Shown one piece after another: positions 14,414 through 45,188 of a stretch of 64,000 nt of DNA (within the stretch, counting starts at the first letter, position 1; every line of letters starts with the position of its first letter). The DNA comes from Tagaea sp. (lineage in GTDB: Bacteria; Pseudomonadota; Alphaproteobacteria; CACIAM-22H2): contig CBDIIB010000005.1 of assembly GCA_965279525.1 (NCBI GenBank), positions 672,001 to 736,000 of the forward strand. Reading direction: 5' to 3'. The notes under the pieces were generated by a model. That model made no database searches. It saw only the letters and a program-made list of their open reading frames with translations, and was not told where the DNA came from. The position numbers and the translations under genes were made by a program.

Positions 14414-14503
14414 TGGCCTGTGCCGGGTTCTGCGGACACCGAGATAGGTTCGATTACGGATCAGACACCACCCTCAACCGGGTGAGTTCACGGGCTCAGG
14501 CCA
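14414..14503 (+). repeat. 90-bp junction element, copy A (TGGCCTG...CAGGCCA terminal inverted repeats); left boundary of the accessory region
   Basis: Terminal IRs match at 11 of the first 13 nt; lies 18 bp after the M20 stop, where GC content drops; homologous to copies at 31378, 37448 and 45099. Confidence 0.85.
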
Positions 14504-14558
14504 CAGCAGTCATAGAAACTCGACGGTCATTGACCTCTGCCAGCAGGAAAGTACTTTC

Positions 14559-15497
14559 TTATTCTTCATCCTTTGACGAAGCGACCGCTGCGATCTGCTC
14601 TTCCTGCCAAGCGGCATATGACTTCTTTGTGCCTTTAACGCACCAAGAAGTACGGCCATTGTCCGGTCGCCCCACGATTACAGCTGAAGCGGCACTCGGG
14701 CTACGGAATGCGTAGTCGCGATAGAAGCGCAAACGCCCTGCCGCTCCGGGGATAAGCACACCCTCTTCGATAAGCCGCCGATGGAGTTCCTTGTAGTGGT
14801 GAGATGCAGTACCAATCCAAGATTCCTGCGCCTGAGAATTAGCGAAAACGACAAAGTCGCCGTCCATTTCACGTGCCTCGGCGCGAATATCATGCTTCTT
14901 GCTGATCAACTCGAAGATGGGAGATTCTGCTTCTATGACTTGATCAGCTCCCGCAGGCGCGATGGCTGCGGACTCGATTCTTGGCTGATCTTTCAGAAGC
15001 TCAAGTCCCAGTACTGGCAATACAATGCGTAATTGCTCAATGAAGAATTCCATATCGGAGAGATCGCCTTCGGGTAGTTGGCTGTGGTCCGGTGCCGTAC
15101 CGTTGAGCAGCTTGGCCCGCCCTGCCCCATTGGCTATGGCAATCAGACGGCTTTCCAAGTATCGCGCATGCGCCTTCGTCAGATTTTGATCCTTGCTAGT
15201 AACCACGCAAGTTCGCTCCCAGAATTCCTTGGCGTTGTCTTTGTTGTGCTGAACAAGTCTCTTGCCCACATTGTCGGTTTCGCCCACATAGACCAAAGGC
15301 TTGAGACCTTCCTCTGGGTCAGCTCCGGCCAGGATATAGATCCCGGTCCGCCCAACTTCGGGCCGCTGAATTAAATCGGCTAGACGCGATCGTGGGGCCA
15401 GAATTACGTGGCCGGTCCAATTCATGATCTCGGCGGTGATAATTCCACCCGGCGTTCCGTCAGCAAGAAAAAGACGGATGGATCGACCCTTTGTCAC
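14559..15497 (-). CDS. GIY-YIG nuclease with DUF4357-type C-terminal domain
   Basis: GIYIL...VYVGETDNVGKRLVQH, LTKAHARYLE; C-terminal F.SPSAASAVIVGR..NGRTSW; GTG start with GAGG RBS; lower GC. Confidence 0.88.
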   Translation of the reverse strand: MTKGRSIRLFLADGTPGGIITAEIMNWTGHVILAPRSRLADLIQRPEVGRTGIYILAGADPEEGLKPLVYVGETDNVGKRLVQHNKDNAKEFWERTCVVTSKDQNLTKAHARYLESRLIAIANGAGRAKLLNGTAPDHSQLPEGDLSDMEFFIEQLRIVLPVLGLELLKDQPRIESAAIAPAGADQVIEAESPIFELISKKHDIRAEAREMDGDFVVFANSQAQESWIGTASHHYKELHRRLIEEGVLIPGAAGRLRFYRDYAFRSPSAASAVIVGRPDNGRTSWCVKGTKKSYAAWQEEQIAAVASSKDEE

Positions 15498-15549
15498 GCC
15501 CTCACCTCAGTCAGCATGGCCCGAATGCGACATAGATGTAGCGATCCAC

Positions 15550-15671
15550 AGTAAGTGAGATTCGCCGGCGGCTAAGTTGTTGTTCGTGCTGTACGGCAAA
15601 AACTGCATGTCGTCGATGAATTGCAGAGTAAGTGAGATTCCGCGTTGTTGGAATCAGAGAACATGAGATTC
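15550..15671. repeat. Direct repeats AGTAAGTGAGATTC (15550-15563, 15627-15640) plus partial TGAGATTC (15664-15671)
   Basis: Exact 14-bp duplication in the divergent intergenic region. Confidence 0.75.
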
Positions 15672-15838
15672 GAAATTCAGCCTTCATAATTTCAACTATT
15701 TACGATCTTCAAAACGAGCAGTTACGAACTGCGATTTTCGCCGACGCTCTACGAGCATCCCGCAGTCGATACGAATAGAAGTTGACGACCTCTGCTTTAG
15801 AACATTCAGTGAACTCGTCTTTTGAAAACGAGGTTCAA

Positions 15839-16075
15839 ATGTTCACGCTGTCCTGCCGCAGCTGCCGCCACTGGGAGTGTCGCTCCGACGAGCGATCGGG
15901 TGTCTGCCGCTTTTCCCCGCCCCGCAGCCTCACTCTGCTCTCCGCCACCGACGATCCCGAGCTTCGGGTCGTCTGGCCCGTGACCCTTGCCGACGATCGT
16001 TGCGGAGCTTGGAACGGCAACGCCCATCGCTACCGTGGCACAGCCAACGCTGGCCGCACATCGGAGGCCGGGTAA
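15839..16075 (+). CDS. Small 4-Cys putative metal-binding protein
   Basis: GAGG RBS; CxxCxxW...G.CR..PP...WP.T...D.CGxW pattern; stop 3 nt before the AAA start. Confidence 0.7.
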   Translation: MFTLSCRSCRHWECRSDERSGVCRFSPPRSLTLLSATDDPELRVVWPVTLADDRCGAWNGNAHRYRGTANAGRTSEAG

Positions 16076-16078
16076 GTC

Positions 16079-17452
16079 ATGTTCATTCCCGATAACGAAA
16101 CCGAACTCGCCAAGCTGGTTCTCTGGACCAATCCTCCGAAGGACGAGATCAACGGGCGCCATCGCTCGAGATGGCTACTGGAGAACCTGGAGGAGCGACC
16201 GGCGCTCAAGTTCGTCGATGTGCCGAAAAAGGAAGAGGAGCTCTTCAAGTTTGCGCTAAAGCTCCGGGCTGTCGGCCGGCCAGGGCTCTATATCGCGTTT
16301 CTGGTCGTTCTGGCGCTGGGTGGGCATCCCTTCGCGTGCTTGATCACCGCCGGGATCCTTACCCAGCGGATCGCAGAGGGTACGTGTCGGAACGAGCGAG
16401 TCCTGAGGCGCCGGATCAATGGGTGGCTAAGCACCCCCAAGGCAGCCGACTTCACGAAGGCACTCGGTCTTCCGTCGATACTGTTCACATTGGATTTCGA
16501 CGAGAAGCGCATGGCCAGGGCTGCCGACCGGACAAGCGAACTCCGTCGCCAGATCGATCTTAACGAGCGGAAGGTCACGCTCATCGAAGGAACGCTCGAG
16601 AAGTGGAAGTCGGATGCGTCCAGTTCGGAGCGCTATGTCCGCCTCAACCGTTCACTGGACCTCAAAGGCAATGTCGATCGTGTCAGCAGCGACCGACTGA
16701 TCATTGCCCTACGCCACGAATACCCCTGGGCAGACGAACTTCTCCGGGATATCGGGATAGCCCTGACGCTCTCGATTTCCTCGGGCAAGCCGTGGCTTGC
16801 ACTCCCACCGCTCTTGCTCGTGGGGCCAGCGGGCGTCGGGAAGACCCGCTTCGTGCGGCGTCTGTCCGAACTCAGCGGTGTTCCCTTCCGAGTGGTCAAT
16901 GCCGGTGGCAGTTCCGACAGCCGGGACTTCTCCGGGACCGCCCGCGGCTGGGGAAGCGCCAAGCCGGCCCGGATCGTCGAGATCCTTCGCGAGACCGAGA
17001 CCGCCAATCCAATCGTCCTGATCGACGAGATCGACAAGGCCGGAGGCAGTGACCGAAACGGCCGAATGACAGCAACTCTGCTGACCATGCTGGAGCCAGA
17101 GACGCGCGGAAGGTTCTACGATGAGGCACTCGCTGCAAATGTCGACTTGTCGCACGTGAACTGGATTCTCACGGCAAACGACATCAGCTTACTTGGCCAG
17201 CCACTCCTGTCCCGCGTTCGGTTGGTCCGAATGCCGCAGCCGCCAGCCGCTCATGCCGGCCGGATCATCGAGACAGTCGTTGCTGACATCGGGCGCAAGC
17301 GCGGATGGCCGAAAGATGCCCTCCCCGAGCTTGAGGTGGAGGTGAAGTGCGCGCTGATCGCTGCAATAGAGAGGGGTATGTCGCCTCGGCGGCTCAATGC
17401 CGTTCTCGAAGAGATTCTTGCGATCGAGACGAGGCGGCGATTGGTATCATGA
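16079..17452 (+). CDS. AAA+ ATPase, Lon-type ATPase domain without a protease domain
   Basis: Walker A GPAGVGKT, Walker B VLIDEIDK, LLTMLEPE, DLSHVNWILTAN, PLLSRV; ends shortly after the AAA lid. Confidence 0.88.
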   Translation: MFIPDNETELAKLVLWTNPPKDEINGRHRSRWLLENLEERPALKFVDVPKKEEELFKFALKLRAVGRPGLYIAFLVVLALGGHPFACLITAGILTQRIAEGTCRNERVLRRRINGWLSTPKAADFTKALGLPSILFTLDFDEKRMARAADRTSELRRQIDLNERKVTLIEGTLEKWKSDASSSERYVRLNRSLDLKGNVDRVSSDRLIIALRHEYPWADELLRDIGIALTLSISSGKPWLALPPLLLVGPAGVGKTRFVRRLSELSGVPFRVVNAGGSSDSRDFSGTARGWGSAKPARIVEILRETETANPIVLIDEIDKAGGSDRNGRMTATLLTMLEPETRGRFYDEALAANVDLSHVNWILTANDISLLGQPLLSRVRLVRMPQPPAAHAGRIIETVVADIGRKRGWPKDALPELEVEVKCALIAAIERGMSPRRLNAVLEEILAIETRRRLVS

Positions 17453-17487
17453 TGGCCTGAGCCCATTGACTTCACATTTGGTCGAAG
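17453..17487 (-). repeat. Partial junction element, copy B, abutting the AAA stop codon
   Basis: TGGCCTGAGCCC is identical to the 12-nt terminus of copies A and C; degenerate similarity follows (CAC...GGTcGAAG). Confidence 0.6.
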
Positions 17488-17643: not shown

Positions 17644-18831
17644 CTATCCAGGCTGTCCGTCAGGTCGGCTGAGGGCCAAGATGGGCAAGAAACGCACAAA
17701 GAATATCGCAAACCCGCTCGCCCAAAGCGCACCCGAAAATCCGATCAACTCTTGTCCAAAATCTCCGCCGAATATCGGGCCGACAATGGCGCGGCCAGCA
17801 GCCGCGGCACTTACAAGCACATAGGCCGAGACAAGCCAGCCATCGGCGAGAATCGGGCGCCCCGTGTGGCCAAGCGATGCACGCGACATCACGCCCAAGA
17901 TCATCGTTCCGAATGCGCCAAGTGTGATCGCATGGAGGGCCATGGTCTGCGTACCGATCCCAAGCCCTGCCGCCGATGCCCATATCGCAAATCCGGCGAC
18001 CAGCCACGCATAGCCGAGATGAAGGACCCAGACGATCGGCATGCCGACTGTTGCCATCGGCTTCCAGCCCAGCAGACGTACGAAGTTCAAGACAGTTGCC
18101 AGCGCGGCCAGCGCGGCGATCACGGAATCCGGAACGCTGGCGGCATCCGCAAGGAAGCAGAGCAGTACCGAGGCGATCGCCGCCTTGTCGAGGGCCGGTC
18201 TGCCGGCAAGCTCGATCTGTAGGCCTGCGCCCCGCAGTGCGTTCTGCGTAAATGCTGGGATGATCCGGCCGCCGATGGTCGCGACAAGCGCGGTGACGAT
18301 ACCGATCGCCAGATACAGGGATGGACGCGCCACGTCTTGCCACACGCCGGTTGCGTCGAGATGCACCACCAGATTGGTGCCGGAGAGCACGATGAGAAGC
18401 CCGACAATTGGGGCGTTTCGAAAGAGCCGCTTCTCCATGATCGCTCGCCCTGCCCAAATCGCGAGAGCCGGCAGAAAGCCAATATCGAGGAGAGCGAAGG
18501 CGATCGGGGTAGTTTCCGCAACGGTCCAGGCAGCGACCCGCCCTGTCGCCCATAAGAAAAACAGCAACGCGAGAGCAGATCCACGTAGCGGCGCCACGCC
18601 AGTCCAGTTCGGAACGGCCGTCAGCAAGAAGCCTGCAAGCGCGGCAGCGACGAACCCGAAGATCATCTCGTGCGCATGCCACAACATGGCCGGCAGGACC
18701 GGCTGGAATTCGACGTGCCCCACCCAAACGAGAATCCAGCCGACTGCTCCCCAAACCGCATAGAGAGCTGCGCCGAGGAAGAATGGCCGGAAACCATATG
18801 CGAAGACAGCAATACGCCCTTTTGGGGTCAC
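17644..18831 (-). CDS. nnrS: NnrS family protein (NO-response haem-copper membrane protein)
   Basis: GFRPFFL, WHAHEMIFGF, GFLLTAVPNWTG, IGGRIIPAFT, RASLGHTGR; GTG 18831 overlaps the upstream stop (GTGA). Confidence 0.93.
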   Translation of the reverse strand: MTPKGRIAVFAYGFRPFFLGAALYAVWGAVGWILVWVGHVEFQPVLPAMLWHAHEMIFGFVAAALAGFLLTAVPNWTGVAPLRGSALALLFFLWATGRVAAWTVAETTPIAFALLDIGFLPALAIWAGRAIMEKRLFRNAPIVGLLIVLSGTNLVVHLDATGVWQDVARPSLYLAIGIVTALVATIGGRIIPAFTQNALRGAGLQIELAGRPALDKAAIASVLLCFLADAASVPDSVIAALAALATVLNFVRLLGWKPMATVGMPIVWVLHLGYAWLVAGFAIWASAAGLGIGTQTMALHAITLGAFGTMILGVMSRASLGHTGRPILADGWLVSAYVLVSAAAAGRAIVGPIFGGDFGQELIGFSGALWASGFAIFFVRFLPILALSRPDGQPG

Positions 18832-19391
18832 CTGCGTCGGTCCCTTATGTTTCGCGAAAGACAACTTCTATCAGAATCTGTCAGCCGCCGCCGAGCCAGC
18901 GGCAGTACAATCGCATCTTCCAGTTCCAGCACGCGACGCTGAGACTCGATGAATCTTTTCAAGGCAGCGCGAAGGCTGTCGCCAATAGCTCGATCAATGC
19001 GAACAGTCTCGAGTTCGTTCACGATAGCCAAGCATTCGGCAGCGTCTCGCGCCGGCTCGTTGGCAACCATTTCGAGAATTCTCTCTAACCCATCTGCACT
19101 TCCGCAGCGTATCCGAAGCAGCGGAAACAGTCCTTCGTCCTCGTCCAGCACATGGCGCGCCAAGTCCGACAGTATGAAGTTGATCGCGAGATGCGCTATG
19201 GCAAAGCGAGAACCCGCTTTCGGCTCTGATCCAAGTCGCGCCAGCAACGAAAGGAGTGCGCGCACTCGATAGTTCTCGGTCTCGAGATAGTCGAGCGGCT
19301 CCGCAATAAGGCGCAGATCTGCAGCCCCGATGGCAAATACATCTCCGGCAATACTGCCTCTCGTACCTGCTCCCGCCATTCCGACATCCAC
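18828..19391 (-). CDS. Hemerythrin-like domain protein (degenerate)
   Basis: HVLDEDEGLFP and LEDAIVLP.ARRRL motifs; several His ligands are absent. Confidence 0.72.
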   Translation of the reverse strand: MDVGMAGAGTRGSIAGDVFAIGAADLRLIAEPLDYLETENYRVRALLSLLARLGSEPKAGSRFAIAHLAINFILSDLARHVLDEDEGLFPLLRIRCGSADGLERILEMVANEPARDAAECLAIVNELETVRIDRAIGDSLRAALKRFIESQRRVLELEDAIVLPLARRRLTDSDRSCLSRNIRDRRR

Positions 19392-19395
19392 CGTT

Positions 19396-20175
19396 TCACT
19401 GTTCGGTCACGCCCAATCCTTCGACGCGATAGCAGAACGCCAAGCCTTCAATATACGTCCGGAGTGCCTTGAGATAGGCACGCTCCTCAATCTGGCGGGC
19501 AATCTGGTCGCGGACGGTTGCGTAGGGCAAAGGTCGGCCGTCGGCGCGGCGCAGCAGGCGAACGATATGGTAGCCATAGCGCGTCGGCACCGGGGCAGCA
19601 CATGTCTCCCCTTCATCGAGGCTGAAAAGATAGGTCTCGAACTCCGGGACCGTCGTTCCCCGGACGATCTGACCAAGCCAGCCGCCTTGGCTTGCTGACG
19701 GGCAGGCGGAGTGCGCTTTCGCAAGGGCCTCGAACCGATCCGGCGTTCGCTCAATTTCGGCAAGCGTCGCTTGTGCTGCGGCAAGAGCAGCCGACCGTCC
19801 TTCCGGGTCATCCGGTGCTGCAGCAAACAGAATGTGCTGGGCTTCGAGCAGGTCGGGACTGCGCAAATCTCCGCCCTTTGCCTCGAACCACGCCCTGCAT
19901 GCCGCTTCGTCGGCCGGAGGGACATTTACCTCTTGTTCGAGGACGTCCTCGATCGCTTGTACGATCGCCGGCTCAGATATCGCATCGGTCGCGAGGAGGC
20001 CCAGCTCAACCGCACGACGACACAGGATTTCCCGGACGGCGACCGCACGGGCGGCCGCAAGGCGCGATTCGTCGAGCGACTTCGCCGGCCGATACTGCAT
20101 CTCGGCGGCGACGGCCGCGTCGGGCAACGCATGCCCATCGATCCGGATCGGATCGAGGCGGGGCTGGTCAGACAT
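19396..20175 (-). CDS. PpiC/parvulin-type peptidyl-prolyl isomerase (NifM-like, nar-associated)
   Basis: HILF, FEALAKAHSACPS...GG.LG, PEFE, TRYGYHIV; follows narI. Confidence 0.9.
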   Translation of the reverse strand: MSDQPRLDPIRIDGHALPDAAVAAEMQYRPAKSLDESRLAAARAVAVREILCRRAVELGLLATDAISEPAIVQAIEDVLEQEVNVPPADEAACRAWFEAKGGDLRSPDLLEAQHILFAAAPDDPEGRSAALAAAQATLAEIERTPDRFEALAKAHSACPSASQGGWLGQIVRGTTVPEFETYLFSLDEGETCAAPVPTRYGYHIVRLLRRADGRPLPYATVRDQIARQIEERAYLKALRTYIEGLAFCYRVEGLGVTEQ

Positions 20176-20863
20176 GGCGGGCACCTCCACGACGGCGGAC
20201 GACCTGATAGCTGCGGAACACGTAGCCGACCGGCGCGCTCCAGATATGGACCAGACGCGAGAACGGAAACACGAGGAAGAGCGTCATCCCGAGGACGAGA
20301 TGCAGCCGGTAGGGCCACGCCACGCCGGCCAGGAGCTCCGCATCGCCGCCGCGGAACGTGACGACATGCTGCACCCATTCTGAGAGAACCAGCATGACGG
20401 ACCCATCAGGATGCTGCAGCGAATACGGAATCGTCACAAGTCCGAGTGTGAGCTGGATCCAGAGCAGAGCCAGAACGACGATATCCATCGTCGAGCTCGT
20501 CGCGCGGATACGGCTGTCGGTCAGGCGCCTGTGCATCAGGATCGTCAACCCGATCCAGCACACGACGCCAAAGACGCCGCCCGCGACAATCGCGATCATC
20601 TGTTTGAGCTCCACGCCGAGTCCGAGCGACGTGTAGAACTCATGCGGTGTGAGCAAACCCACAAGATGACCCGCGAAGATCGCGAGGATCCCGATATGGA
20701 AGAGATTGGAGCCCCATCGCAGGCTTCGGCCGCGCAGCATCTGGCTGGAACCGGAGCGCCACGAATACTGTTCACGGTCAAATCGTATAAGGCTGCCAAC
20801 GAGGAAGACCGTAAAGCAGACATACGGATAGATCTCGAACAGGAATTTCTCGATCGCATGCAT
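20168..20863 (-). CDS. narI: Respiratory nitrate reductase gamma subunit
   Basis: YPY, QYSWRSGSSQML, SNLFHIGI..GH, FPFSRLVH. Confidence 0.97.
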   Translation of the reverse strand: MHAIEKFLFEIYPYVCFTVFLVGSLIRFDREQYSWRSGSSQMLRGRSLRWGSNLFHIGILAIFAGHLVGLLTPHEFYTSLGLGVELKQMIAIVAGGVFGVVCWIGLTILMHRRLTDSRIRATSSTMDIVVLALLWIQLTLGLVTIPYSLQHPDGSVMLVLSEWVQHVVTFRGGDAELLAGVAWPYRLHLVLGMTLFLVFPFSRLVHIWSAPVGYVFRSYQVVRRRGGARHV

Positions 20864-20878
20864 GGCGATTCCTCCCCT

Positions 20879-21556
20879 TCAACCGGCATTCATTCGGGCG
20901 ACCCAGTCGGCAGCCTTGCCGCACCCGGCACCGGCTGTACCACCAGGCCCGGCATCACCCGGCCCAAAGCGGACTTCGGATTCGGCCCAATCCCGGTCGA
21001 TCTCTTCCAGCGTGGGATCCCGTTCGGGAAGGCCGTCATCGGCAGGTACCGAATTCTCACCCGCCAGCTCGCGCACTGCCGAAAGCACCCCCGCATAGGG
21101 GCTGCCGCGCTTGGCAAGGCGCAACTGGATGGGGGCCAGCAACGGAGCGACTTCACGCAACATCGCGCGCGCGTCGACGACCGGTATCTGCGCAAGGAAT
21201 TCGAGGATTACCGGTAGATAATCCGGCAACTGCGATGCGGTGACCTCGAAGCCACTTTTGCGGTAGTGGGCGAGCAGGTCGACCATCGCGGGACCGCGTT
21301 CGCGCGAATCGCCATGGACGTGCTCAAACAGGTGAAGGGAAAGTGAGCGAACGCGATCGAACAACTCGACCCAGCGTTCCTGGATCGTCAGCAGATCATG
21401 CGCACCCAGCATCTCTGCTGCCGCTTCGACCCGGGCTAACGCCAGTGGCCCGAGCAGCCCCTCCGCACGGATAGCTTGCCGGATGTCCGGCAAGGCAGCC
21501 TGCATGTCTGCGCTTGGGTAGTCGAGCATCGCGCTCAGCGCCTTGAAGGTCTTCAT
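20879..21556 (-). CDS. narJ: Nitrate reductase molybdenum cofactor assembly chaperone
   Basis: LDYP, LFDR..SLSLHLFEHVHGDSRERGPAMVDL, LPDYLP. Confidence 0.96.
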   Translation of the reverse strand: MKTFKALSAMLDYPSADMQAALPDIRQAIRAEGLLGPLALARVEAAAEMLGAHDLLTIQERWVELFDRVRSLSLHLFEHVHGDSRERGPAMVDLLAHYRKSGFEVTASQLPDYLPVILEFLAQIPVVDARAMLREVAPLLAPIQLRLAKRGSPYAGVLSAVRELAGENSVPADDGLPERDPTLEEIDRDWAESEVRFGPGDAGPGGTAGAGCGKAADWVARMNAG

Positions 21557-21558
21557 CG

Positions 21559-23082
21559 TCAGACCTCCACCTTGCCGGGTGCGCCGACCCGCTTTCGCGG
21601 GCCGAAAAGGGAAGCTTCATTGGGTCCATCCGAGCAGCCGTTTCCGAACGTGAAACCACACGAGTTCTTGAGGTCGTAGGCATTCTCGGCGTATTCGCGA
21701 TGCGTCGTCGGAATGACGAAGCGGTCCTCGTAGTTGGCGATCGCCAGCGTGCTGTACATGTCCTCGACCTTTGCCTTGTCGAGGCCGACCCGCGCGAGTA
21801 CTTCGAGATCTTCACGCGATTCGACATGACGCGCACGCATGAAGGCGCGCATGGCAAGCATCCGCTCCAGTGCAAGCGCGACGGGCGCTTCGTCGCCGGC
21901 GGTCAGGAGATTGGCGAGGTAGCGGAGCGGGATGCGCAGCGAGCGCACGTCCGGGATGCCGCCATCCTGTTCGATCTTGCCAGCGTCCGCGGCAGCCTGG
22001 ATCGGCGACAGCGGCGGCACGTACCAGACCATCGGCAACGTGCGGTATTCCGGATGCAGCGGAAAGGCGATCTTCCAGTCGATGGCCATCCGGTAGACGG
22101 GGGATTTCCGGGCGGACTCCATCCATGCCTCCGGGATCCCCTCCGTCCGCGCCGCCGCAATCACCTCCGGATCGTTCGGGTCGAGAAAGACCGAGAGCTG
22201 GGCGGGATAGAGACCCTTCTCGTCTTCCACGCTCGCGGCAGCCTCGATCCTGTCGGCATCGTAAAGCATTACGCCGAGATACCGGATGCGTCCGACGCAG
22301 GTCTCCGAACAGACGGTCGGCTCTCCGACCTCAAGGCGTGGATAGCAGAGGATGCACTTCTCCGCCTTCCCGCTCTGCCAATTGTAATAGATCTTCTTGT
22401 AGGGGCACGCGGACACGCACATGCGCCAGCCGCGGCATTTGTCCTGGTCGACGAGGACGATGCCGTCCTCCTCGCGCTTGTAGATCGAACCCGAAGGACA
22501 GGCCGCCACGCAGGCAGGATTCAGGCAGTGCTCGCACAGGCGCGGCAGGTAGAACATGAACGTGTTCTCGAACTGACCGTGGATCTCCTTCTGGATGCCT
22601 TCGAAGTTGCGGTCCTTCGAGCGCTTGGCGAATTCGGTACCGAGGATTTCCTCCCAGTTCGGCCCCCACTCGATCTTCTCCATCCGCCGGCCGTCGAGCA
22701 GCGAGCGCGGACGGGCAGTCGGGAAGTTCTCCATCTGAGGCGCGCTCTGGAGATGTTCGTAGTCAAACGTGAAGGGCTCGTAATAGTCGTCGATTTCCGG
22801 AAGGTGCGGATTGGCGAAAAGCTGGGCGAGAATCCGCCATTTGCCGCCGAGCTTCGGCCGGATTCGGCCATTCGCTTGCCGGACCCACCCCCCCTTCCAC
22901 TTGTCCTGGTTTTCCCAGTCCTTCGGATAACCGATACCCGGCTTCGTCTCGACATTGTTGAACCAGGCGTATTCGACGCCCTCGCGCGACGTCCAGACGT
23001 TCTTGCAGGTGACCGAGCACGTGTGGCACCCGATGCACTTGTCGAGGTTCAGGACCATCGCGATCTGCGCGCGGACTTTCAT
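21559..23082 (-). CDS. narH: Respiratory nitrate reductase beta subunit
   Basis: MKVRAQIAMVLNLDKCIGCHTCSVTCK, CEHCLNPAC, CRGWRMC, CILCYPR. Confidence 0.98.
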   Translation of the reverse strand: MKVRAQIAMVLNLDKCIGCHTCSVTCKNVWTSREGVEYAWFNNVETKPGIGYPKDWENQDKWKGGWVRQANGRIRPKLGGKWRILAQLFANPHLPEIDDYYEPFTFDYEHLQSAPQMENFPTARPRSLLDGRRMEKIEWGPNWEEILGTEFAKRSKDRNFEGIQKEIHGQFENTFMFYLPRLCEHCLNPACVAACPSGSIYKREEDGIVLVDQDKCRGWRMCVSACPYKKIYYNWQSGKAEKCILCYPRLEVGEPTVCSETCVGRIRYLGVMLYDADRIEAAASVEDEKGLYPAQLSVFLDPNDPEVIAAARTEGIPEAWMESARKSPVYRMAIDWKIAFPLHPEYRTLPMVWYVPPLSPIQAAADAGKIEQDGGIPDVRSLRIPLRYLANLLTAGDEAPVALALERMLAMRAFMRARHVESREDLEVLARVGLDKAKVEDMYSTLAIANYEDRFVIPTTHREYAENAYDLKNSCGFTFGNGCSDGPNEASLFGPRKRVGAPGKVEV

Positions 23083-23110
23083 GTTCGTGTCCTCTTCGTT
23101 CGGGGGGTGA

Positions 23111-26842: not shown

Positions 26843-26872
26843 GGTCGTGTCCTCGGGCTCGATTGACTTCGA

Positions 26873-31360: not shown

Positions 31361-31377
31361 AAATATTGTACTGCTCA

Positions 31378-32334: not shown

Positions 32335-32495
32335 ATGATTGATATTCCCCGTTAACTTCGAACCCACAATCGATGGCGGTGCAGCGCGACCGTGCAATCG
32401 AATCTGGAGCCGAATTGATTGATAAGTCATCTTCGCCATAACACGCAACGACGACGGCGGTCGGCCCACTTTCGCCGCAACGCACAATTCGGCCG

Positions 32496-32534
32496 TTGAC
32501 AGTCCAGAATCCTCATATCATCATCAATGATGAT
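32496..32534 (+). promoter_or_regulatory. Sigma70-like promoter with an overlapping palindromic operator
   Basis: TTGACA (32496), 17 nt, then CATCAT; perfect palindrome ATCATCA-A-TGATGAT at 32520-32534 over the -10. Confidence 0.55.
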
Positions 32535-32579
32535 CGATGTTCATTCGAATGTCGATCCTGCTTTGACAAACAGGTCGCC

Positions 32580-34423: not shown

Positions 34424-34478
34424 CGTGCGGGCCGTCTCAACGACCAACGGAATCCACAGACCGAAAGGAGCTTTAAAA

Positions 34479-35468: not shown

Positions 35469-35473
35469 TCTTC

Positions 35474-35503
35474 AAGGACGTCGCCTGTTTCGGCGGCGCC
35501 CTT
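35474..35503 (+). terminator. Stem-loop after dctP (attenuating terminator or mRNA-stabilising hairpin)
   Basis: AAGGACGTCGCC-TGTTTC-GGCGGCGCCCTT, followed by pyrimidines. Confidence 0.45.
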
Positions 35504-35544
35504 CTCTCATCCATCCAGGACTGAATTCAAATGGAGAAGTATTC

Positions 35545-35931
35545 ATGCGGACGGCCGTAAATACCCCGCTCCCGCCCATTGACGCGCCACTCGAATGGGC
35601 GACCATGTCGAACGGCGCGTTCTATACCGCTGTAATCGGCACGCTGCCTGACGGCACGATGGATACCGGCGATATCCGCTCGCAGACCAAGTACACGCTC
35701 GACAATCTGAAGATCTGCATCGAGGCAGCGGGCGGTACGATGGATGACGTGACACAGGTGCTGGTCTATCTGACCGCTCGCAAGGACGCGAAAGGCATGA
35801 ATGAGGTCTACGCGCAGTATTTCAAGAAACCTTACCCCAACCGCGCGACCGTTGTGATCTCCGAACTTCTGGTGCCCGGCTGCATCGTCGAGATGGTGGC
35901 CTATGCGCATATCGGATCCCCCAAGGGCTGA
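35545..35931 (+). CDS. RidA/YjgF family protein
   Basis: QT..TLDNLK..IEAAG, MNEVYAQYF..PYPNRATV, VEM. Confidence 0.9.
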   Translation: MRTAVNTPLPPIDAPLEWATMSNGAFYTAVIGTLPDGTMDTGDIRSQTKYTLDNLKICIEAAGGTMDDVTQVLVYLTARKDAKGMNEVYAQYFKKPYPNRATVVISELLVPGCIVEMVAYAHIGSPKG

Positions 35932-35946
35932 TCCGGGAACCTTGAT

Positions 35947-37447: not shown

Positions 37448-37537
37448 TGCGCTTCCGCACGTTTTGTGGAAACGAAGATAAGCTCAAACGCAAAGCAGAC
37501 TCTGCCCTCACTCGAGTGAATTCGTTGCCTTAGCCCC
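37448..37537 (+). repeat. 90-bp junction element, copy D (degenerate)
   Basis: Ungapped 54/90 to copy A with many transitions; shares CAGACTCT with copy C. Confidence 0.65.
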
Positions 37538-37799: not shown

Positions 37800-38573
37800 T
37801 CAGGCCGGAAGCATCCAGAAACGTTCGTTTGACACAAGCTTTGCTACAGCGTCAGCAGCTGCTTCCAATAGCCTCTCACCCTTCTCAGCAGTCGACGCAC
37901 GAGGATCCCCAATGGCACCATGCGTCGTGCGTGACTTGAAGGAGCGATAGCGAATTGCAGCATCCGTACCAGTAACGTCCTTGATCTCAGTTTCCGTCGG
38001 ACCAACAGCGTTCTGCGCCCGAGCCATATCGACGAACTGAGGGGCAAGATGAAGAAGCATCGACGTCTCGGCTTCGCATGCATGTCGGACGTTTGTCTGG
38101 CGCTCGAGGATTTTCCCGAACGCCTCCTGAGCCAGTAGCCAATACGAGGCGGTTGCTATCGGTGCGTCGAACTCAATCGCAAAATCATTCACGATCGCGG
38201 TCAGGGCTGCAATGTTGCCGCCGTGGCCATTCAACAAGAAGATACGCCGGAACCCGCCCTTCAGGATTGATCGAACAAGGCAACGGAGTACGGAGTGGAA
38301 TGTGGCAAGGTCGAGCGAAAGTGTCCCACCAAGCGATAGGTGGTGCTCGGCCAGGCCGTGCCAAACCGTTGGTGCGACGACGACCGGCGTCTGGTGTGCG
38401 ATCTTTCGCGCAGCTCGACGCCCTACTTCACCAGACAGCAGCGAATCCACTTGCGTCGGCAGGTGTGGGCCATGCTGTTCCGTCGAGCCGACGGGAAGGA
38501 TCACAACGGCGTTGCGTGCCGCAAGCGCATTCAGTTCGCTGGCCTTTAGTTTCCACCATTCGACTTCGATCAT
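37800..38573 (-). CDS. Creatininase family cyclic amidohydrolase
   Basis: [32 protein letters not shown]. Confidence 0.93.
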
Positions 38574-39364
38574 CGTACCCTCCGGGATCCGCCATCACGC
38601 TCAAGCAGCCGCTCCAGAAATGCCTGAGTACGCGCTTCAGCAGGAGCACTGAAGATCTGCGAGGGCGGCGCACGCTCCACGATTGTTCCCTTGTCCATGA
38701 AGATCACATCATCAGCCACATCGCGCGCAAAGCCCATTTCATGGGTCACGACCATCATTGTCATGCCCTGCTCTGCAAGCTGGCGCATCGTCTTCAGGAC
38801 TTCACCGACAAGTTCCGGATCGAGCGCGGACGTCACCTCGTCGAAGAGCATGATGCGCGGTCGCATGGCGAGCGCCCGGGCGATGGCCGCGCGCTGCTGC
38901 TGACCACCCGAGAGCCTCGCTGGATAGGCATCACTCTTGTCCTCAAGGCCGACCTTGCGCAGGAGCTCGATTGCAATATCCCGTGCCTCGTTCGGCTTCA
39001 TGCCACGAACCCGACATGGTGCGAGGGTGATGTTCTGGAGAACGGTCAGGTGCGGGAACAGATTGAAGCTCTGAAAGACCATGCCGACTTCCTGGCGCAG
39101 CTTTTCCCGGCCGGCCCTGTCGAGCTTGATCGAGTTTCCGTCTTCGCCGCCCTGCACGGCTGGCGCGCCATCGATCAGGATTCGCCCCTTCTGGATGGGT
39201 TCGAGCCCGGCAACACAGCGCAGCATCGTGCTCTTGCCTGATCCCGACGGACCGATGATCACCATTACCTGACCTGGATCGATGGCGAGCGAAATGTCAT
39301 CGAGGACCGTTTCTGTCCCGTATCTTTTTGTTACGCGTTCGATGACGACGTGAGGTTCAGGCAT
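38570..39364 (-). CDS. Amino-acid ABC transporter ATP-binding protein
   Basis: [28 protein letters not shown]. Confidence 0.95.
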
Positions 39365-40032
39365 TAATGGCTCCGGCTGGCGTTCAGGCGCTTCTCGATC
39401 GCTTGAAAGAAGAGTGCAATCGGATACGTCAGTACAAAATAGGCAACTGCGACGATCGTGAGTGTCTCGACCGGCCTGAAGGTTTCAAGCGAGATCAACT
39501 GCCCGACACGTAACAGTTCAGGCGTGCCGATCGCCGTGGCAAGTGCCGTACCCTTGATCAGATAGATGACGGTCGTGCCGGTCGGGGGCATCACGTTGCG
39601 GAATGCCTGCGGCAGAATCACGAATCGCAGCGTGTCGCCAAGGTTCAATCCAAGGACTCTTGAGGCCTGCCATTGGGTCCGGTCGATTCCGGCAATTCCG
39701 GCGCGGAATATCTCAGCGAAGAAGGCCGCTATGTTCAGCCCAAGAGCCAGTGCCGCAGACCAGAATTCATCGAGATCGTAACCGGTGATGACCGGCAGAC
39801 CGTAGAATATCCAGACGATCTGAACGAGCGGCGGGGTTGTACGAAAGAACTCGATAAAGACATAGGCTGGCCAATTGAGTACGGCGATGCCTGAGTAGCG
39901 CATAAGGGCAAGCACAAGCCCGAGCACGAGGCCCAGGCTTGCGCTCACTGCACTCAGCCCGATCGTCACCCGTACCCCGTCGATGAGGTCCGGGAGATAT
40001 TCGACGATCGGCGCGAAGTTAAGGTTGCCCAT
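39364..40032 (-). CDS. Amino-acid ABC transporter permease
   Basis: [21 protein letters not shown]. Start at 40032 (ATG) or 40044. Confidence 0.92.
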
Positions 40033-40052
40033 ATGCGTACTCAATCCGCGGA

Positions 40053-40871
40053 CTACTGGGCTGCGTTGATCTGGTCGGCCGTCATGAACTGCTTGACCAG
40101 TTCAGCCAGTTGGCCGGACTCGCGCAGCTTCTTGGTGAAGCCCGCAACATACTCGGCAAGCTTGGCATCACCCTTCATGTGGGCGTAGCCGACCTTGCAG
40201 GCGCGGATATCGAGCGGATTGTTGTGCCCCGGAAAGACCTTGATTCGATCGCCAAAGGCAGCAAGGGCGACAGTCGTCTGGATCGGCGTATCGAGTACGA
40301 CGGCATCGGCGCGGCCGGCGATCACTTCCTGAATGAGGTCAGCCGATGTCGACTGGCCGAATACCTTCAGCGTTGCCAGCGGTGCTGCTTCCTTTGCGAC
40401 CGACTCTGACCACGAACCGCCGGGCACCGCGAATACGACTTCCGGACGGTTGAACGCCGCCAAGTTCGTCAGCCCCTTCGTGTTGTTCGCCGCGATCGTC
40501 AGTGTCGCGCCGATGGTGATGTAGCTTTCGCTGAAATCGACCGATTCCTTGCGCCTGTCGGTGATGCAGAGCGCGGGAACGATATCCCACTTCTTCGTCT
40601 CGACACCGGCGACGGCCGTGGCCCACTCCGCGTTGACGACGTTGAGTTTCACGCCAAGATCGCTTGCCATCCGCTTCATTACCTCGACATCCATCCCGAC
40701 ATACTCGCCATTCGGCCGGCGGGAGATGAGGGGACGGTAGAGGACGCCGGCGACGCGGAGTTCTCCGCGCTGCTTGATTTCGTCAAGTACGCTTTGTGCA
40801 GCGACCGGCGCCGGTGCGCCGACTGCAACAGTGCCGAGAAGTAGAACCGCCAAAGTCAGGAGTCTACGCAT
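40053..40871 (-). CDS. Amino-acid ABC transporter substrate-binding protein
   Basis: Signal peptide, IKQRGELRV, ITDRRKESVDFS. Confidence 0.92.
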   Translation of the reverse strand: MRRLLTLAVLLLGTVAVGAPAPVAAQSVLDEIKQRGELRVAGVLYRPLISRRPNGEYVGMDVEVMKRMASDLGVKLNVVNAEWATAVAGVETKKWDIVPALCITDRRKESVDFSESYITIGATLTIAANNTKGLTNLAAFNRPEVVFAVPGGSWSESVAKEAAPLATLKVFGQSTSADLIQEVIAGRADAVVLDTPIQTTVALAAFGDRIKVFPGHNNPLDIRACKVGYAHMKGDAKLAEYVAGFTKKLRESGQLAELVKQFMTADQINAAQ

Positions 40872-40939
40872 CGTGATTCTCCTTGTTCATGCGGAGGCAT
40901 GTGGCCGCCGCGGGTTTTCGGTGGCCAGGCGGCCGCCGT

Positions 40940-41605
40940 TTATTCGGCCTTGAACGCAAGACTGCTTCTCTTTTCGAGGTTTGCTGAGAGCAGAACCAGC
41001 GGCCAAGTGAGGACGAAGTAGATGAGCGCCACGAATGTCAGGATCTCGAGCGGCCGGAAGGTTTCGGAGGCAAGTATCCAGCCGCGGTTCATGATCTCTG
41101 GCATTGCGATTACGGCAGCCAGCGATGACTGTTTCACCAGGCTGACCAAAGTGTTGCAGGACGGCGCAAGAATGAGACGCAGTGTCTGGGGAAGCACGAC
41201 CCACCACAGACGCTGGAAACTCGACAAACCGAGTACCTGTGCTGCATCCGACTGGCCGCGTGGCACTGCTGAAATCCCGCCCCGAAAAATCTCGGCCATT
41301 TGGGCGCTGGTGGAACAGGCCAGCGCGCCGGCGACGACCGTAAATGCATCGAGCTTGATGTCGGCGATTACCGGGAGCGCGTAGTAGGCCCAGACGATAT
41401 GCATCAAGGGCGGTGTCGTCCTGAAAAATTCAATCCATGCAAGCGATAACGTTGCCACAACGGGCACGCGCGCTATCCGGGTAACTGCAATGGGTAGAGC
41501 GGCAATGGTTCCGACAGCAAAGGCGACGACCGTGATTCCGATGGTCAACGGTACTCCGAGGAGAAGGGACGGAATGTCGCCGATGACTGTGTCGAATCGC
41601 AGCAT
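40940..41605 (-). CDS. Amino-acid ABC transporter permease
   Basis: FRTTPPL, AEIFRGG, VPRGQSDAA. Confidence 0.92.
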   Translation of the reverse strand: MLRFDTVIGDIPSLLLGVPLTIGITVVAFAVGTIAALPIAVTRIARVPVVATLSLAWIEFFRTTPPLMHIVWAYYALPVIADIKLDAFTVVAGALACSTSAQMAEIFRGGISAVPRGQSDAAQVLGLSSFQRLWWVVLPQTLRLILAPSCNTLVSLVKQSSLAAVIAMPEIMNRGWILASETFRPLEILTFVALIYFVLTWPLVLLSANLEKRSSLAFKAE

Positions 41606-41610
41606 GCCGG

Positions 41611-42408
41611 TCAGCCTTTCGGACCTTTGCGGCGATGCGGCCGTGCACTTGTGTCGGAAGTCCCAATTGGCAGAAGGTCTGCGCCCTTTGTCTTGTGCTC
41701 CTGAAGCTGGGCTTCGATCTCCGTCAAGGCAATCGGTCCGACCGTGAAGTGATCCTTGATCGCGCGCGCCGAGACATCGGCATCTCGCGACTCGATAGCG
41801 TCAAGAATCGCCTGATGCGCGTCCCACGTCCGCTTGCAGAAATCGGCGCTGAAACGGTGCTCCGCTCCCTCGGTATGAACATCCAGAAGCGGGCTTAGAA
41901 GATCCTCGAGCACTGCATTCTTGCTGGCGCGGGCAAGCGCCAGATGGAACTCGCGGTTCAGTTCTTGGCTGGCGGCGTAGTCGAGCGGAAGCGGTTCGGC
42001 TTTGCGAATGATCGCCGCCATCGCGTCGATATCGGCCTTCGTCGCCCGTTCCGTCGCCAGTTGCATGATCTGGCCTTCCAGAAGGCGCCGAGCCTCCCAG
42101 AGATCGCGGATCCCGATGCGCTGCATGGCGAGATGGAACAGTGCCGGATCGTAGATCAGCGGCATCCAGCGGAACGGCCGAATGACCGTCCCGCTCCCGT
42201 GATTGGCCTCGACGACATTGAGTGCGGCCAGACGCTGCACGGCCTCGCGGATCACTGCGAGACCAACCCGCATCGACCGGGCGAGTTCCCGCTGCGGCGG
42301 AAGCCTGTTGCCTGGAACAAGTTCGCCACTCGCGATCCGCTTGAGGATCGTCTGCGCGACCTGATCGGGAAGCGTCTGGATGGTCGGGGAAGGCCACGCT
42401 TTGGTCAT
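41611..42408 (-). CDS. GntR/FadR family regulator
   Basis: PGNRLPPQRELA...IREA HTH plus FCD domain. Confidence 0.92.
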   Translation of the reverse strand: MTKAWPSPTIQTLPDQVAQTILKRIASGELVPGNRLPPQRELARSMRVGLAVIREAVQRLAALNVVEANHGSGTVIRPFRWMPLIYDPALFHLAMQRIGIRDLWEARRLLEGQIMQLATERATKADIDAMAAIIRKAEPLPLDYAASQELNREFHLALARASKNAVLEDLLSPLLDVHTEGAEHRFSADFCKRTWDAHQAILDAIESRDADVSARAIKDHFTVGPIALTEIEAQLQEHKTKGADLLPIGTSDTSARPHRRKGPKG

Positions 42409-42440
42409 TGCAATCTACTCCAAGAGTGTTAGGTTGATAG

Positions 42441-42455
42441 AGTGTTCGGAACACT
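42441..42455. promoter_or_regulatory. Palindromic candidate operator between the divergent GntR and enolase genes
   Basis: AGTGTTC-G-GAACACT perfect 7-bp inverted repeat; extra half-site AGTGTT nearby at about 42425. Confidence 0.55.
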
Positions 42456-42492
42456 TTGTCAATCGATGACTTAAATCGAAACGGAGGGGAGA

Positions 42493-43623
42493 ATGAAGAT
42501 CACGGCAGTTCGTACGGTTCCAGTCTGGGGGCGCCGGAGGCGTCCATACGGAACCGTGACGCGTACCGCTCTGGGTGCCGCCCCTATCTCCGACTACACG
42601 ATCATATTCGTCGAAACCGATGCCGGCATAACAGGCCTCGGAGAGGTCTGCTCGGTCTTCAAGCGGCGTGGCGCCCTGCTCCGCTCCGACGTCGACCTGG
42701 CGCTCGCGCCGGCAGTCTTGGGCGAGGATCCTTTCCGGATCGCGCATCTGGTGGCCAAGATGGATGCGACACTCGACGGCGTCGAGGAAGCAAAGGCCGG
42801 CATCGAGATGGCCCTGTGGGACATAGTCGGGAAAGCGCTGAATACGCCTGTCTACAATCTGCTCGGCGGAAAGGTTCGTGATCGCATTCCGCTCAGCTAC
42901 TCGATTCCGTTTGGTACGCCGGAGCAGATGGCGGCACTTGCGGTCGAACGCGTCAAGTTTGGTCACAAGACCATCAAGGTGAAGGTCGGCAGTGAGGACG
43001 GGCCGCGCGACATCGCGGCAGTCCGCATGATCCGAGAAGCGATCGGACCGGCAATCAAGCTTCGCGTCGACGGCAACATGGGTTGGCCCACCGCCAAGCA
43101 CGCCATCCGGATGATCCGTGCGATGGAGCCCTACAATCTGGAGCTCTTCGAGCAGCCTCTTGCAGCTCTCGATCTCGATGGAATGGCGGAAGTCCGGCAG
43201 AACATCGGCGTTCCTCTCATGGCAGACGAAAGCATCCGGAATCCGCGTAGTGCCATGGCCGTGATCCGGCGGGGTGCGGCCGACATCGCGAATGTCTATG
43301 TCACCGAAGCCGGTGGAATCCTCAACGCGACCCGTATTTTCGCGATGTGCGAGGCCGCGTCGATTCCCTGCATGATCGGCTCGATGCCGGAGTTCGGGAT
43401 CGGAACTGCCGCACAGATCCATCTGGGCCTGGCAATGACCAATCTCGGGCCTGACAGCGACACGTGCGGTGTCCTCTACCACGAGGAGGATCTGCTCAAG
43501 ACTCCGCTTCGCTTCGAGGATGGCTTCGCTTATGCCCCCACTGGTCCAGGACTTGGCGTCGAAGTCGACATGGCTATTGTGGAGAAATGGAACAAGGCCG
43601 GTCCGGACGGGGCCAAGGGCTGA
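42493..43623 (+). CDS. Enolase superfamily enzyme, muconate lactonizing enzyme subgroup
   Basis: ALWDIVGK, KVK, DGN, EQP, DES, PTGPGLG. Confidence 0.92.
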   Translation: MKITAVRTVPVWGRRRRPYGTVTRTALGAAPISDYTIIFVETDAGITGLGEVCSVFKRRGALLRSDVDLALAPAVLGEDPFRIAHLVAKMDATLDGVEEAKAGIEMALWDIVGKALNTPVYNLLGGKVRDRIPLSYSIPFGTPEQMAALAVERVKFGHKTIKVKVGSEDGPRDIAAVRMIREAIGPAIKLRVDGNMGWPTAKHAIRMIRAMEPYNLELFEQPLAALDLDGMAEVRQNIGVPLMADESIRNPRSAMAVIRRGAADIANVYVTEAGGILNATRIFAMCEAASIPCMIGSMPEFGIGTAAQIHLGLAMTNLGPDSDTCGVLYHEEDLLKTPLRFEDGFAYAPTGPGLGVEVDMAIVEKWNKAGPDGAKG

Positions 43624-43635
43624 AGGGAGCGCGAA

Positions 43636-45054
43636 ATGGGACCCAGCACGCATCAGAATTGCGACATCCTGATCCGCAACGGCTACGTCGTGACGATGGA
43701 TGCTCGACGAACCCTGTTCCCCGCAGGGGCTGTCGCCATCCGCGGCCATACGATTGTCGACGTAGGGCCTGAGGCCACACTCACGAAGAAGTGGAAAGCC
43801 GTGCGGACGATCGATGCGGGCGGGAGCTTCGTGCATCCTGGCTACATCGATGCACACCTGCATGTGAATGCCCAATCCTGCCGCGGTTTCTTTCGGGGCG
43901 ATGCCAGCAAGGGAACGGCAAAAGGGCCCAGCTACGCCGACTGGAAGGCAGAACTGACGGGCGACGACGAGCAAGCAGCAACAGCGCTTGCATCGGTGGA
44001 GATGCTGCGCCACGGGATCACGACATTCGTCGAGCCAGGTAGTGCATTCGAACCGGATGCCGTGGCCGAAGCTGCAGGTGCTGTCGGAATCCGGTGCACC
44101 CTGTCTGATCCCTATCTATGGGACGAGACCGAGATCATGCAGACGATCCCGGGCCTGATGAGTCCCGCCCTCGCCCGCCGGGTCCCGCCGGAGCGAGGCC
44201 GCTGCATGAAGTTGCTGGGCGGTCAGCTATTCCGGAATCGCGATCCGGACGGAATCGCACATGGGCACATAGCGCTCTACGGCGAGGGAACGGCGTCGGA
44301 CGAGCTCCTGCGAGCATCGAAGTCGCTTGCCGACAAAGAGAATACCGTCGTCAACAGTCATATTGGTTACGATTTGGATCTTGCACAGGCCATGGAGAAG
44401 CGGTGGGGAAAGCCTCGCTTCGTTCATCTGCACGATATCGGCGTACTCGGGCCGAACCAGACCTTCGTCCACATGAACCTGATCGGGGAGCAGGAAGTAG
44501 ACCCGATCCTTTCAGCGGATATCGTCAGCGTGTGGTGTCCATTTGCCTATGCATCTCGTGCCACGGTAATGCGAATGCCAACGCCGCTTCCTGAATTGAA
44601 AAAGAAGGGGGCTGTAGTCGCACTTGGCACAGATTCGGCGCGCCAAAGCTCATCCGGCGATGCGGGCTTCCTTGCCTTCGTCTTGTCTGCAGAAGTCGGT
44701 CGCGGTCTCCAGGCTGAAGAAATTCTGGAGATGCTGACACTGGGAGGGGCACGGGCTGCGGGACTTCAGACGCTGATCGGTGCGCTGGCGCCCGGCATGC
44801 GAGCAGATGTCGTAATCCGTTCAAATCATTTCGCCGAAATTGCGCCCGGGGTAGACGCAGTCCATCAGCTCGTCGCAATCGCTCACGGAGCAACAGCTGA
44901 TACGGTGCTCGTCAATGGCAACCTCGTGCTACGTCACGGCCAACCAACAAACGTCGATGAAGGTGCAGTCATCGATGGAGCTCGGAAATCCGTAGCCGGT
45001 GTTGCCAAGCGGCTGGGGATATTCCCATCTGGTCTTTGGCCAAAGCAGAGCTGA
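43636..45054 (+). CDS. Amidohydrolase family protein (Atz/Trz/SAH-deaminase-like)
   Basis: PGYIDAHLH, EMLRHGITT, VHMN, ALGTD, G.LAPG.RAD. Confidence 0.9.
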   Translation: MGPSTHQNCDILIRNGYVVTMDARRTLFPAGAVAIRGHTIVDVGPEATLTKKWKAVRTIDAGGSFVHPGYIDAHLHVNAQSCRGFFRGDASKGTAKGPSYADWKAELTGDDEQAATALASVEMLRHGITTFVEPGSAFEPDAVAEAAGAVGIRCTLSDPYLWDETEIMQTIPGLMSPALARRVPPERGRCMKLLGGQLFRNRDPDGIAHGHIALYGEGTASDELLRASKSLADKENTVVNSHIGYDLDLAQAMEKRWGKPRFVHLHDIGVLGPNQTFVHMNLIGEQEVDPILSADIVSVWCPFAYASRATVMRMPTPLPELKKKGAVVALGTDSARQSSSGDAGFLAFVLSAEVGRGLQAEEILEMLTLGGARAAGLQTLIGALAPGMRADVVIRSNHFAEIAPGVDAVHQLVAIAHGATADTVLVNGNLVLRHGQPTNVDEGAVIDGARKSVAGVAKRLGIFPSGLWPKQS

Positions 45055-45098
45055 CTGCTGAATTGACTGGGGTGCATGGCATGATTTGCCCGAAGATC

Positions 45099-45188
45099 TG
45101 GTCTGCCCCGAGATCCGCGGACATCGAGATATGCTCTGAACCAACTCCATCGGAAGCGCAAAATCAGTGAGAATGGAGGCTGCGGAAG
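45099..45188 (+). repeat. 90-bp junction element, copy E (left half conserved, right half decayed)
   Basis: First 38 nt match copy A at 29/38; GTGAG and GGCT remain in register in the right half; preceded by a 17-nt tandem partial copy at 45082-45098. Confidence 0.65.

Follow-up and report, generated by a model that had tools for sequence, protein, structure and literature searches.

Several described systems place short mobile sequences around other genes. Among MITEs (miniature inverted-repeat transposable elements; reviewed in PMC10969869), a 439-bp pair has been described around a Tn402-like integron (PMC3934969), and MITE-bounded composite structures are known as TIME-COMPs (PMC13367494). 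For the ISApl1-mcr-1-ISApl1 structure, loss of the flanking insertion sequence (IS) copies after mobilisation has been reported (PMC5821093). Here we analyse a stretch of 64,000 nt (the window; positions 672,001 to 736,000 of contig CBDIIB010000005.1, below C5) from the 4.35-Mb genome of Tagaea sp. (G000). An earlier sequence-only reading of this window had described a 90-bp non-coding element that recurs at junctions between metabolic gene modules and had proposed that it is an IS3-derived MITE or a dedicated recombination site for adding cassettes. The analysis indicates that the copies are very probably non-functional terminal remnants of two IS3-family ISs, given the working names IS-1 and IS-2, and that IS-mediated events would have joined the operon blocks at whose joints they lie. 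The other genomes compared carry labels of the form G001, and loci extracted from the compared genomes carry L-numbers. The congeners are 70–95% identical, a range at which the fine order of events is unreadable from them.

The copies are designated A (14414), B (31378), C (37448) and D (45099), and E is an extra copy outside the window (C5:1187282-1187336). The coordinates and identities reported for A to D were reproduced exactly, with A sharing 68/90 positions with the reverse complement of B, 54/90 with C and 48/90 with D in ungapped alignments, and 29/38 with the left part of D. Scoring A against each 90-mer on either strand of the window gave a mean of 23.7 with a standard deviation of 4.1, and the top unrelated 90-mer scored 44/90, which makes B, C and D the three best non-self positions for A. 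A repeat finder, which is independent of the sliding comparison, returned A and B as the longest inverted repeat of the window, 67 nt at 87%. The extent of the likeness differs from copy to copy. B has only the last 67 nt in common with A (58/67), its first 23 nt agreeing at 10/23, and D has only the first 33–39 nt in common with A, so that A and C alone have one architecture over the full 90 nt. The description of four full-length copies of one 90-bp element does not hold, B being a 113-nt IS-1 unit and D a left stub. The open reading frame (ORF) list and Pfam matches place every copy in an intergenic region, as had been claimed, and the exact 12-nt terminus reported at 17453 is present (TGGCCTGAGCCC), directly after a stop codon. 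A domain scan gave no rve or tyrosine-recombinase (Phage_integrase) match in the window.

The search set for copy B consisted of 41 genomes, namely G000, 20 other species of the genus and 20 genomes outside the genus. Matches were found in 13 of the 41, G000 included, which corresponds to 12 of the 20 congeners and none of the 20 genomes outside the genus. At least 10 of the 39 listed places that match B begin no more than 160 nt from a contig start, a crowding that indicates a multi-copy repeat that breaks short-read assemblies. Similarity to B runs further inward in most relatives, reaching ~1.28 kb in G011 and G005, and internally deleted versions of the ~1.28-kb element occur in two other genomes. 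The intact IS-1 of G011 (L025:3661-4939, 1279 bp) begins with TGGCCTGAGCCCGTGAA and its far end is the reverse complement of those 17 nt, giving inverted repeats of the TG...CA type, and it is flanked on both sides by ACAG, a 4-bp target duplication. OrfA (101 aa) matches HTH_Tnp_1 (1.6e-23), and OrfB (301 aa) matches rve (4.3e-22) and rve_3 (1.6e-31) and scores 233.6 bits against the NCBIfam model NF033516, 'IS3 family transposase' (cut-off 160). In silico, the OrfA frame contains a G GGA AAC heptamer 12 nt ahead of its stop codon, and a predicted -1 frameshift at this heptamer gives a frame that is open to the OrfB stop codon. IS-1 is an IS3-family insertion sequence, with the OrfA/OrfB pair, the TG...CA repeats and the short duplication all present.

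The first 36 nt of A have no match to IS-1. A pattern search of the genus with this left arm gave 12 matches, compared with 0 for the backward control, and 9 of the 12 loci contain the left terminus of another element of the IS3 type, IS-2 (one copy is L033:285-1532). The inverted repeats of IS-2 lie 1248 bp apart in G015 and G008 and match over ~19 nt, and the element has OrfA and OrfB frames of the IS3 type. Both copies read (G015 and G008) are without a target duplication, and there is a stop inside the OrfB frame of G015. IS-1 and IS-2 align at 65–75% with 'IS3 family transposase' loci on alphaproteobacterial plasmids, the nucleotide identity of IS-2 to annotated IS3-family transposase loci being 72–75%, and 11 of the first 13 nt are alike between the tips of the IS-2 left end and the IS-1 right end. 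Other species of the genus carry both elements in intact form and in multiple copies; in G000, blastn and tblastn found neither of them intact. The suggestion that the TG...CA ends of the repeat resemble those of the IS3 family is thereby borne out, the ends belonging to two IS3-family ISs that are intact in congeners.

For sorting the copies, two nhmmer profiles, one of the IS-1 right end and one of the IS-2 left end, were built from relatives only, with no G000 sequence, and run genome-wide. The IS-1 right-end profile matched B (1.8e-33), E (7.4e-13), A (7.8e-12) and C (8.5e-4), with nothing else in G000 below E = 3. The IS-2 left-end profile matched C3:215183 (5.8e-18), A (3.8e-5), C5:1176878 (2.7e-4) and D (1.5e-3), and all its matches in G000 begin at profile position 1. 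Copy B (31378..31490, minus strand) is a 113-nt 3' fragment of IS-1 comprising the last 34 OrfB codons and the right inverted repeat. Across these 113 nt it shares 98.2% identity with the intact G011 copy of IS-1, its tblastn match covers OrfB residues 268-301 at 88%, and in the 90-nt register it agrees at 35/36 with the IS-1 interior and at 52/54 with the IS-1 end. Its outer terminus, 31378, faces the nitrate reductase (nar) block. Copy A (14414..14503, plus strand) is a hybrid 90-nt mini-element, in which 14414-14449 correspond to the IS-2 left inverted repeat (30/36 to the consensus) and 14450-14503 to the last 54 nt of IS-1 (46/54 to the end consensus). Copy C (37448..37537, plus strand) is a decayed hybrid mini-element with the architecture and register of A. 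In the fixed register it agrees at 25/36 with the IS-2 left inverted repeat (binomial P 1.7e-7) and at 35/54 with the IS-1 end (P 8e-10), and its orthologue in G012 (L067:2407-2497, contig C213) agrees at 28/36 and 30/54, respectively. A plain IS-1 right end like B was considered for C and rejected, since its left 36 nt agree at 25/36 with the IS-2 repeat and at only 12/36 with the IS-1 interior.

Copy D (45099..45137, plus strand) is an IS-2 left-end stub only. Its left part agrees at 28/36 with the IS-2 left inverted repeat, the genome-wide nhmmer match covers profile positions 1-33, and model R1, a sequence-only model of A, C and the C orthologue in G012, matches D over positions 1-39 (E 1.6e-5, within the window). 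The right half agrees at 21/54 with the IS-1 end consensus, which is near chance; D was rejected as a full 90-nt copy on this ground, and the rest of the 90 nt originally assigned to it is not demonstrably related. The IS-1 tip at 17453..17464 (plus strand) is 12/12 exact to the IS-1 end, too short for a profile match, and abuts the stop codon of an AAA-ATPase gene. The same junction of gene stop and IS tip is found in G006, there continued by 28 nt of IS-1 right-end sequence, and the homology of G019 to the window begins at 17470. From these alignments, B and E are read as plain IS-1 right ends, 17453 as an IS-1 tip and D as an IS-2 left stub, and A and C are taken to be two copies of one 90-nt hybrid in which an IS-2 left repeat and an IS-1 right end meet at the same junction. 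The fragments measure 113, 90, 55, ~36 and 12 nt, with exact and common outer termini and differing internal cut points. Alignment from the exact outer end of an IS terminus, beyond what chance is expected to give, is seen for A, B, C, D and the 17453 remnant. B is 98% identical to a living IS, compared with 84% and 67% for A and C to the consensus ends, indicating insertions of different ages, in line with the earlier proposal that unequal decay of the copies would record their age.

The remnants lie at the joints of five gene blocks assigned by Pfam. Block 1 (14559..17452) consists of a GIY-YIG/DUF4357 protein, a small ORF and the 457-aa AAA ATPase. Block 2 (17644..31360) is a complete cluster for respiratory nitrate reductase, with NnrS, hemerythrin, PPIase, NarI, NarJ, NarH and NarG together with a fused MFS NarK, a carbonic anhydrase and a Crp/FNR protein. 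Block 3 (31525..37425) contains an FCD-domain regulator, a TRAP transporter (DctM, DctP), a RidA-like protein and an aldehyde dehydrogenase, block 4 (37800..45054) a creatininase, an amino-acid ABC transporter, a GntR/FCD regulator, an MR/MLE enolase and an amidohydrolase, and block 5 (45253..51281) an MR/MLE enolase, a sugar-type ABC transporter, a GntR/FCD regulator and a ketopantoate-reductase-like protein. The next block joint holds an orphan sequence (51292..51494, plus strand; 203 nt) that copies, at 82%, the final ~200 nt of the gene for the AAA ATPase (16079-17452; repeat family D1). The orphan corresponds to residues 391-457 of the AAA ATPase at 81% by tblastn and ends TGA-TGGCC, like the original at 17450-17457.

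The blocks occur separately in congeners. The nar block is present in G012, G019, G011 and G013 at 84–89% identity, from window positions 17470-17657 to 31359-31377; the TRAP block is a single unit in G009 (77%, 31535-37419), the creatininase block in G012 (86%, 37467-45054, or from 37448 with model R1) and the enolase/ABC block in G011 (89%, 45241-51257). Among the matches listed in the DNA searches of the genus, no two blocks are contiguous as they are in G000, and in G011 two of them are 567 kb apart. One synteny break, of the kind that the sequence-only reading had suggested looking for at the sites, maps to the base: the homology of G012 stops at 31377, one base before the outer terminus of B. 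G012 and G000 also part at position 1 of C. Between 14.4 and 51.5 kb the ORF list gives 15 intergenic gaps of at least 50 nt, six of which are block joints, and all five remnants lie in joints (chance 6/3003, a rough and post hoc figure). The placement of the copies at module boundaries is thus as had been claimed, with blocks that occur apart in congeners.

An intergenic segment of ~140 nt (window 17476-17616) recurs at C4:43926-44066 in G000 (80%) and is also found in G012, G007 and G013; in G013 the homologue adjoins a lookalike of a tRNA 3' part, where ARAGORN calls no tRNA. Lying at the left edge of the nar block, this segment may be what is left of an old attachment site. A tRNA or tmRNA origin of the repeat core itself was considered and set aside, since ARAGORN finds neither within the copies nor next to them.

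The data show what the remnants are, that they are placed at every block joint examined and that the blocks each occur apart in congeners. In the reading that we strongly favour, IS copies would have landed next to operon blocks or between them, within an island located at the 3' end of gyrB, and IS-mediated events, such as composite or one-ended mobilisation, recombination between IS copies or adjacent deletion, would have joined the blocks. Later deletions would have stripped the transposase genes and left the ends alone, with A and C deriving from one 90-nt hybrid that joined the left inverted repeat of IS-2 to the final 54 nt of IS-1. As no cognate transposase is present, the remnants would now be inert. 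The IS-1 right ends of A (plus strand) and B (minus strand) both point inward at a 16.9-kb segment (14504-31377). This geometry may represent the inner ends of an inverted-IS composite transposon, of which the outer parts on both sides would have been deleted, so that a duplication outside them would no longer be readable.

Several points weigh against this reading. D and the 17453 tip are short, and the support for D is an E value of ~1e-3 genome-wide. The flanks of A, C and the C orthologue in G012 are GGC/CAG, GAT/TGT and ATT/GGT, respectively, with no target-site duplication at any of the three, so that simple insertion is not evident. When 12 congener boundary loci were scanned for IS remnants, profile matches were obtained in L067 only (C in G012), both of them weak, indicating that ISs are not obligatory companions of the blocks. 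The hybrid junction common to A and C implies at least one copying event that involved the 90-nt unit as a whole, and decay alone does not account for this. In what order the events took place, and which IS process lies behind each block junction, is what we infer.

A common junction in A and C raises the alternative that the hybrid is, or was, a working MITE mobilised in trans by the transposase of IS-1 or IS-2, and that the island arose from MITE-bounded composite transposons. The build is that of a MITE, since A and C are 90 nt long, non-coding and equipped with both IS-type terminal repeats, and A, C and the G012 orthologue of C have one architecture in one register. The ends of A pair at the termini and its fold is more stable than that of shuffled sequences (z -2.7, with a terminal stem and paired tips), A and C form direct repeats around 23 kb, C accompanies block 4 in G012, and MITE-bounded composites have precedents in the structures cited above (PMC3934969; PMC13367494). 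Against this alternative, the missing target-site duplications count here too, the two ends come from different ISs (tips 11/13), C is without a fold signal (z 0.0), and a copy is lacking at the far end of block 4 in G012. In 21 genomes of the genus, the full-length hybrids that model R1 found were confined to A, C and the one on contig C213 of G012; BLAST with A gave no match over positions 1-90 in the 49 other genomes of the family (50 with G000), and a pattern of the exact hybrid junction had 0 matches in 185,579 species genomes. We therefore regard a working MITE as unlikely. The MITE label is weak given the lack of duplications and the presence of just two copies and one orthologue: by build it fits A and C, and there is no evidence for it by behaviour. 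Of the earlier proposal of an IS3-derived MITE, the IS3 origin and the miniature two-ended build of A and C stand, and the lack of duplications and the count of two copies and one orthologue speak against the remainder. The fuller version, in which a non-autonomous hybrid driven in trans by an IS3-family transposase is still working, paired copies move operon blocks and the gyrB-linked island was built stepwise, is quite improbable.

The position of the copies at block joints, together with the separate occurrence of the blocks elsewhere, could also be expected if the copies were dedicated sites, like integron attC or plasmid dif, at which a recombinase adds operon cassettes one by one. The copies, however, align end to end with IS3-family termini, and B includes transposase coding sequence. 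Their lengths (12–113 nt) and cut points differ, their orientations are mixed, and B and the 17453 tip are fused to the neighbouring blocks at internal truncation points with no common crossover. With heterogeneous fragments, neither a tyrosine recombinase nor an rve gene in the window, and no further hybrid in the 21 genomes, the proposal of a dedicated recombination site or cassette system is not upheld, and we consider it most improbable. A structured RNA or regulatory signal conserved between convergent genes, such as a small RNA, a 3' untranslated region element or a bidirectional terminator, would account for the location of all copies between gene 3' ends and for the fold of A. The stability of A, however, comes from its inverted-repeat tips, B and C are no better than shuffles on either strand (z -0.9 to +0.1), nowhere in the window does an Rfam family attain its gathering score, and the sequence is that of a transposase gene end with an inverted repeat, making an RNA function highly unlikely. 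The related idea of an IS200/IS605 right-end RNA was dropped, the intact element being of the IS3 type. Terminal remnants of IS-1 and IS-2 thus remain the explanation that we adopt.

Copy A lies at the left edge of a larger island. The GC content of the window falls from ~0.66 to 0.60 at 14.4 kb, and the low-GC tract extends to ~C5:757 kb. A perfect 17-bp direct repeat, AGACGTCGAGGTTCGCC, found by blastn-short, has its left copy at 14394..14410 (plus strand; C5:686394), 3 nt before A, and its right copy at C5:757077-757093, in the last codons at the 3' end of gyrB. It has only two occurrences in the 4.35-Mb genome with up to 1 mismatch allowed, and the pair brackets the low-GC island of ~70.7 kb. 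The repeat 3 nt before A and the start of the low-GC tract place A at the extreme left of this island. The claim that A sits at a boundary between host and accessory DNA is supported by composition and by the 17-bp repeat, but not by every comparison: in G019, the gyrB flank joins directly the homologue of the window up to 11877, and two more genes (11967-14395) are extra in G000. Four other congeners set a different block beside the M20 peptidase gene. In G003, G004, G005 and G006, the 3' side of this gene (window 13037-14395) adjoins the homologue of C5:1364122-1368944, a block 682 kb distant in G000. A large rearrangement, one of whose breaks lay at the site of A, would fit this difference. 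At the other break, C5:1368944, no IS remnant was seen by eye in 1.5 kb or among the genome-wide profile matches.

Inward from gyrB, the right end of the island encodes a 254-aa protein followed by a 685-aa rve protein (L052:943-3834; C5:752943-755834). The match of the 254-aa protein to a TnsA-like endonuclease is weak (1.7e-5), its 25.8 bits falling slightly short of the 26.5 cut-off. Together the two proteins form a putative Tn7-like arrangement, read with a TnsA-like match just below the cut-off. Tn7-like elements produce a 5-bp duplication, and the 17-bp repeat is longer. The upstream cargo at this end includes a 1946-aa helicase-nuclease (DUF4011/MTES_1575) as well as an AAA_13 protein. 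No inverted copies of the right-end motif of the island were found near its left end. The DNA outside the gyrB stop codon carries repeated GAGTCTCA-type motifs in several congeners (L106, L099, L104, L009), and the gyrB flank of G008 (L106, C120:1504-1620) is 80% identical to the island right end. An IS-1 right end lies 33 nt from gyrB in G017 and 113 nt from it in G020, and two inverted IS-1 right ends with interiors facing bound 4.06 kb beside gyrB in G017 (L021, C24:49563-53626). Across the genus, the 3' flank of gyrB has the look of a hot spot for insertions. Parts of the same kinds make up another low-GC island (C5:1163000-1208000), with a paralogue of the 457-aa AAA ATPase (54% identical) on the left, the IS-2 left stub at 1176878, the IS-1 fragment E (1187282-1187336) and, on the right, an rve ORF of 709 aa. 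No terminal sequences common to the two low-GC islands (the second at C5:1.163-1.208 Mb) were found.

The island can be viewed as a metabolic mosaic, covering nitrate respiration, TRAP transport with an aldehyde dehydrogenase, creatininase/ABC and enolase/ABC functions, which was stitched from blocks that circulate separately among congeners and keeps IS scars at its seams. The significance beyond the genus is little. For annotators, it would be useful to mask remnants of IS-1 and IS-2 and to avoid mistaking such short repeats for recombination sites or RNAs.

Comparison with the described systems places the copies among ordinary IS ends. Integron attC and plasmid dif arrays likewise have short sites between gene modules; here, in contrast, there is no recombinase gene in the window, no common crossover and no uniform length, and the sequences are IS ends. 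A and C share with MITEs and MITE-bounded composites that they are short, non-coding, two-ended, derived from IS termini and placed as direct repeats that bracket cargo, but their ends are a hybrid of two ISs, they have no duplications, they number two copies and one orthologue, and they give no sign of activity. The ISApl1-type composite offers a likeness in cargo flanked by ISs that decay to single ends or to nothing, as with the right ends of A and B pointing inward at 16.9 kb; it differs in the IS family, in that the outer parts at A and B are gone and in that a third IS-1 tip lies inside at 17453. With the IS3-family ISs the agreement extends to the parent elements, which are ~1.25–1.28 kb long, with OrfA and OrfB frames and inverted repeats, and of which IS-1 has an OrfA with a helix-turn-helix domain, an OrfB of the DDE/rve type, a predicted -1 frameshift heptamer, TG...CA ends and a 4-bp duplication. 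The copies in the window differ from such elements in that they are fragments of only 12–113 nt, to which two family members contribute, and they align with the family's termini. The copies are very probably the worn ends of two ordinary ISs rather than a new cassette-assembly system.

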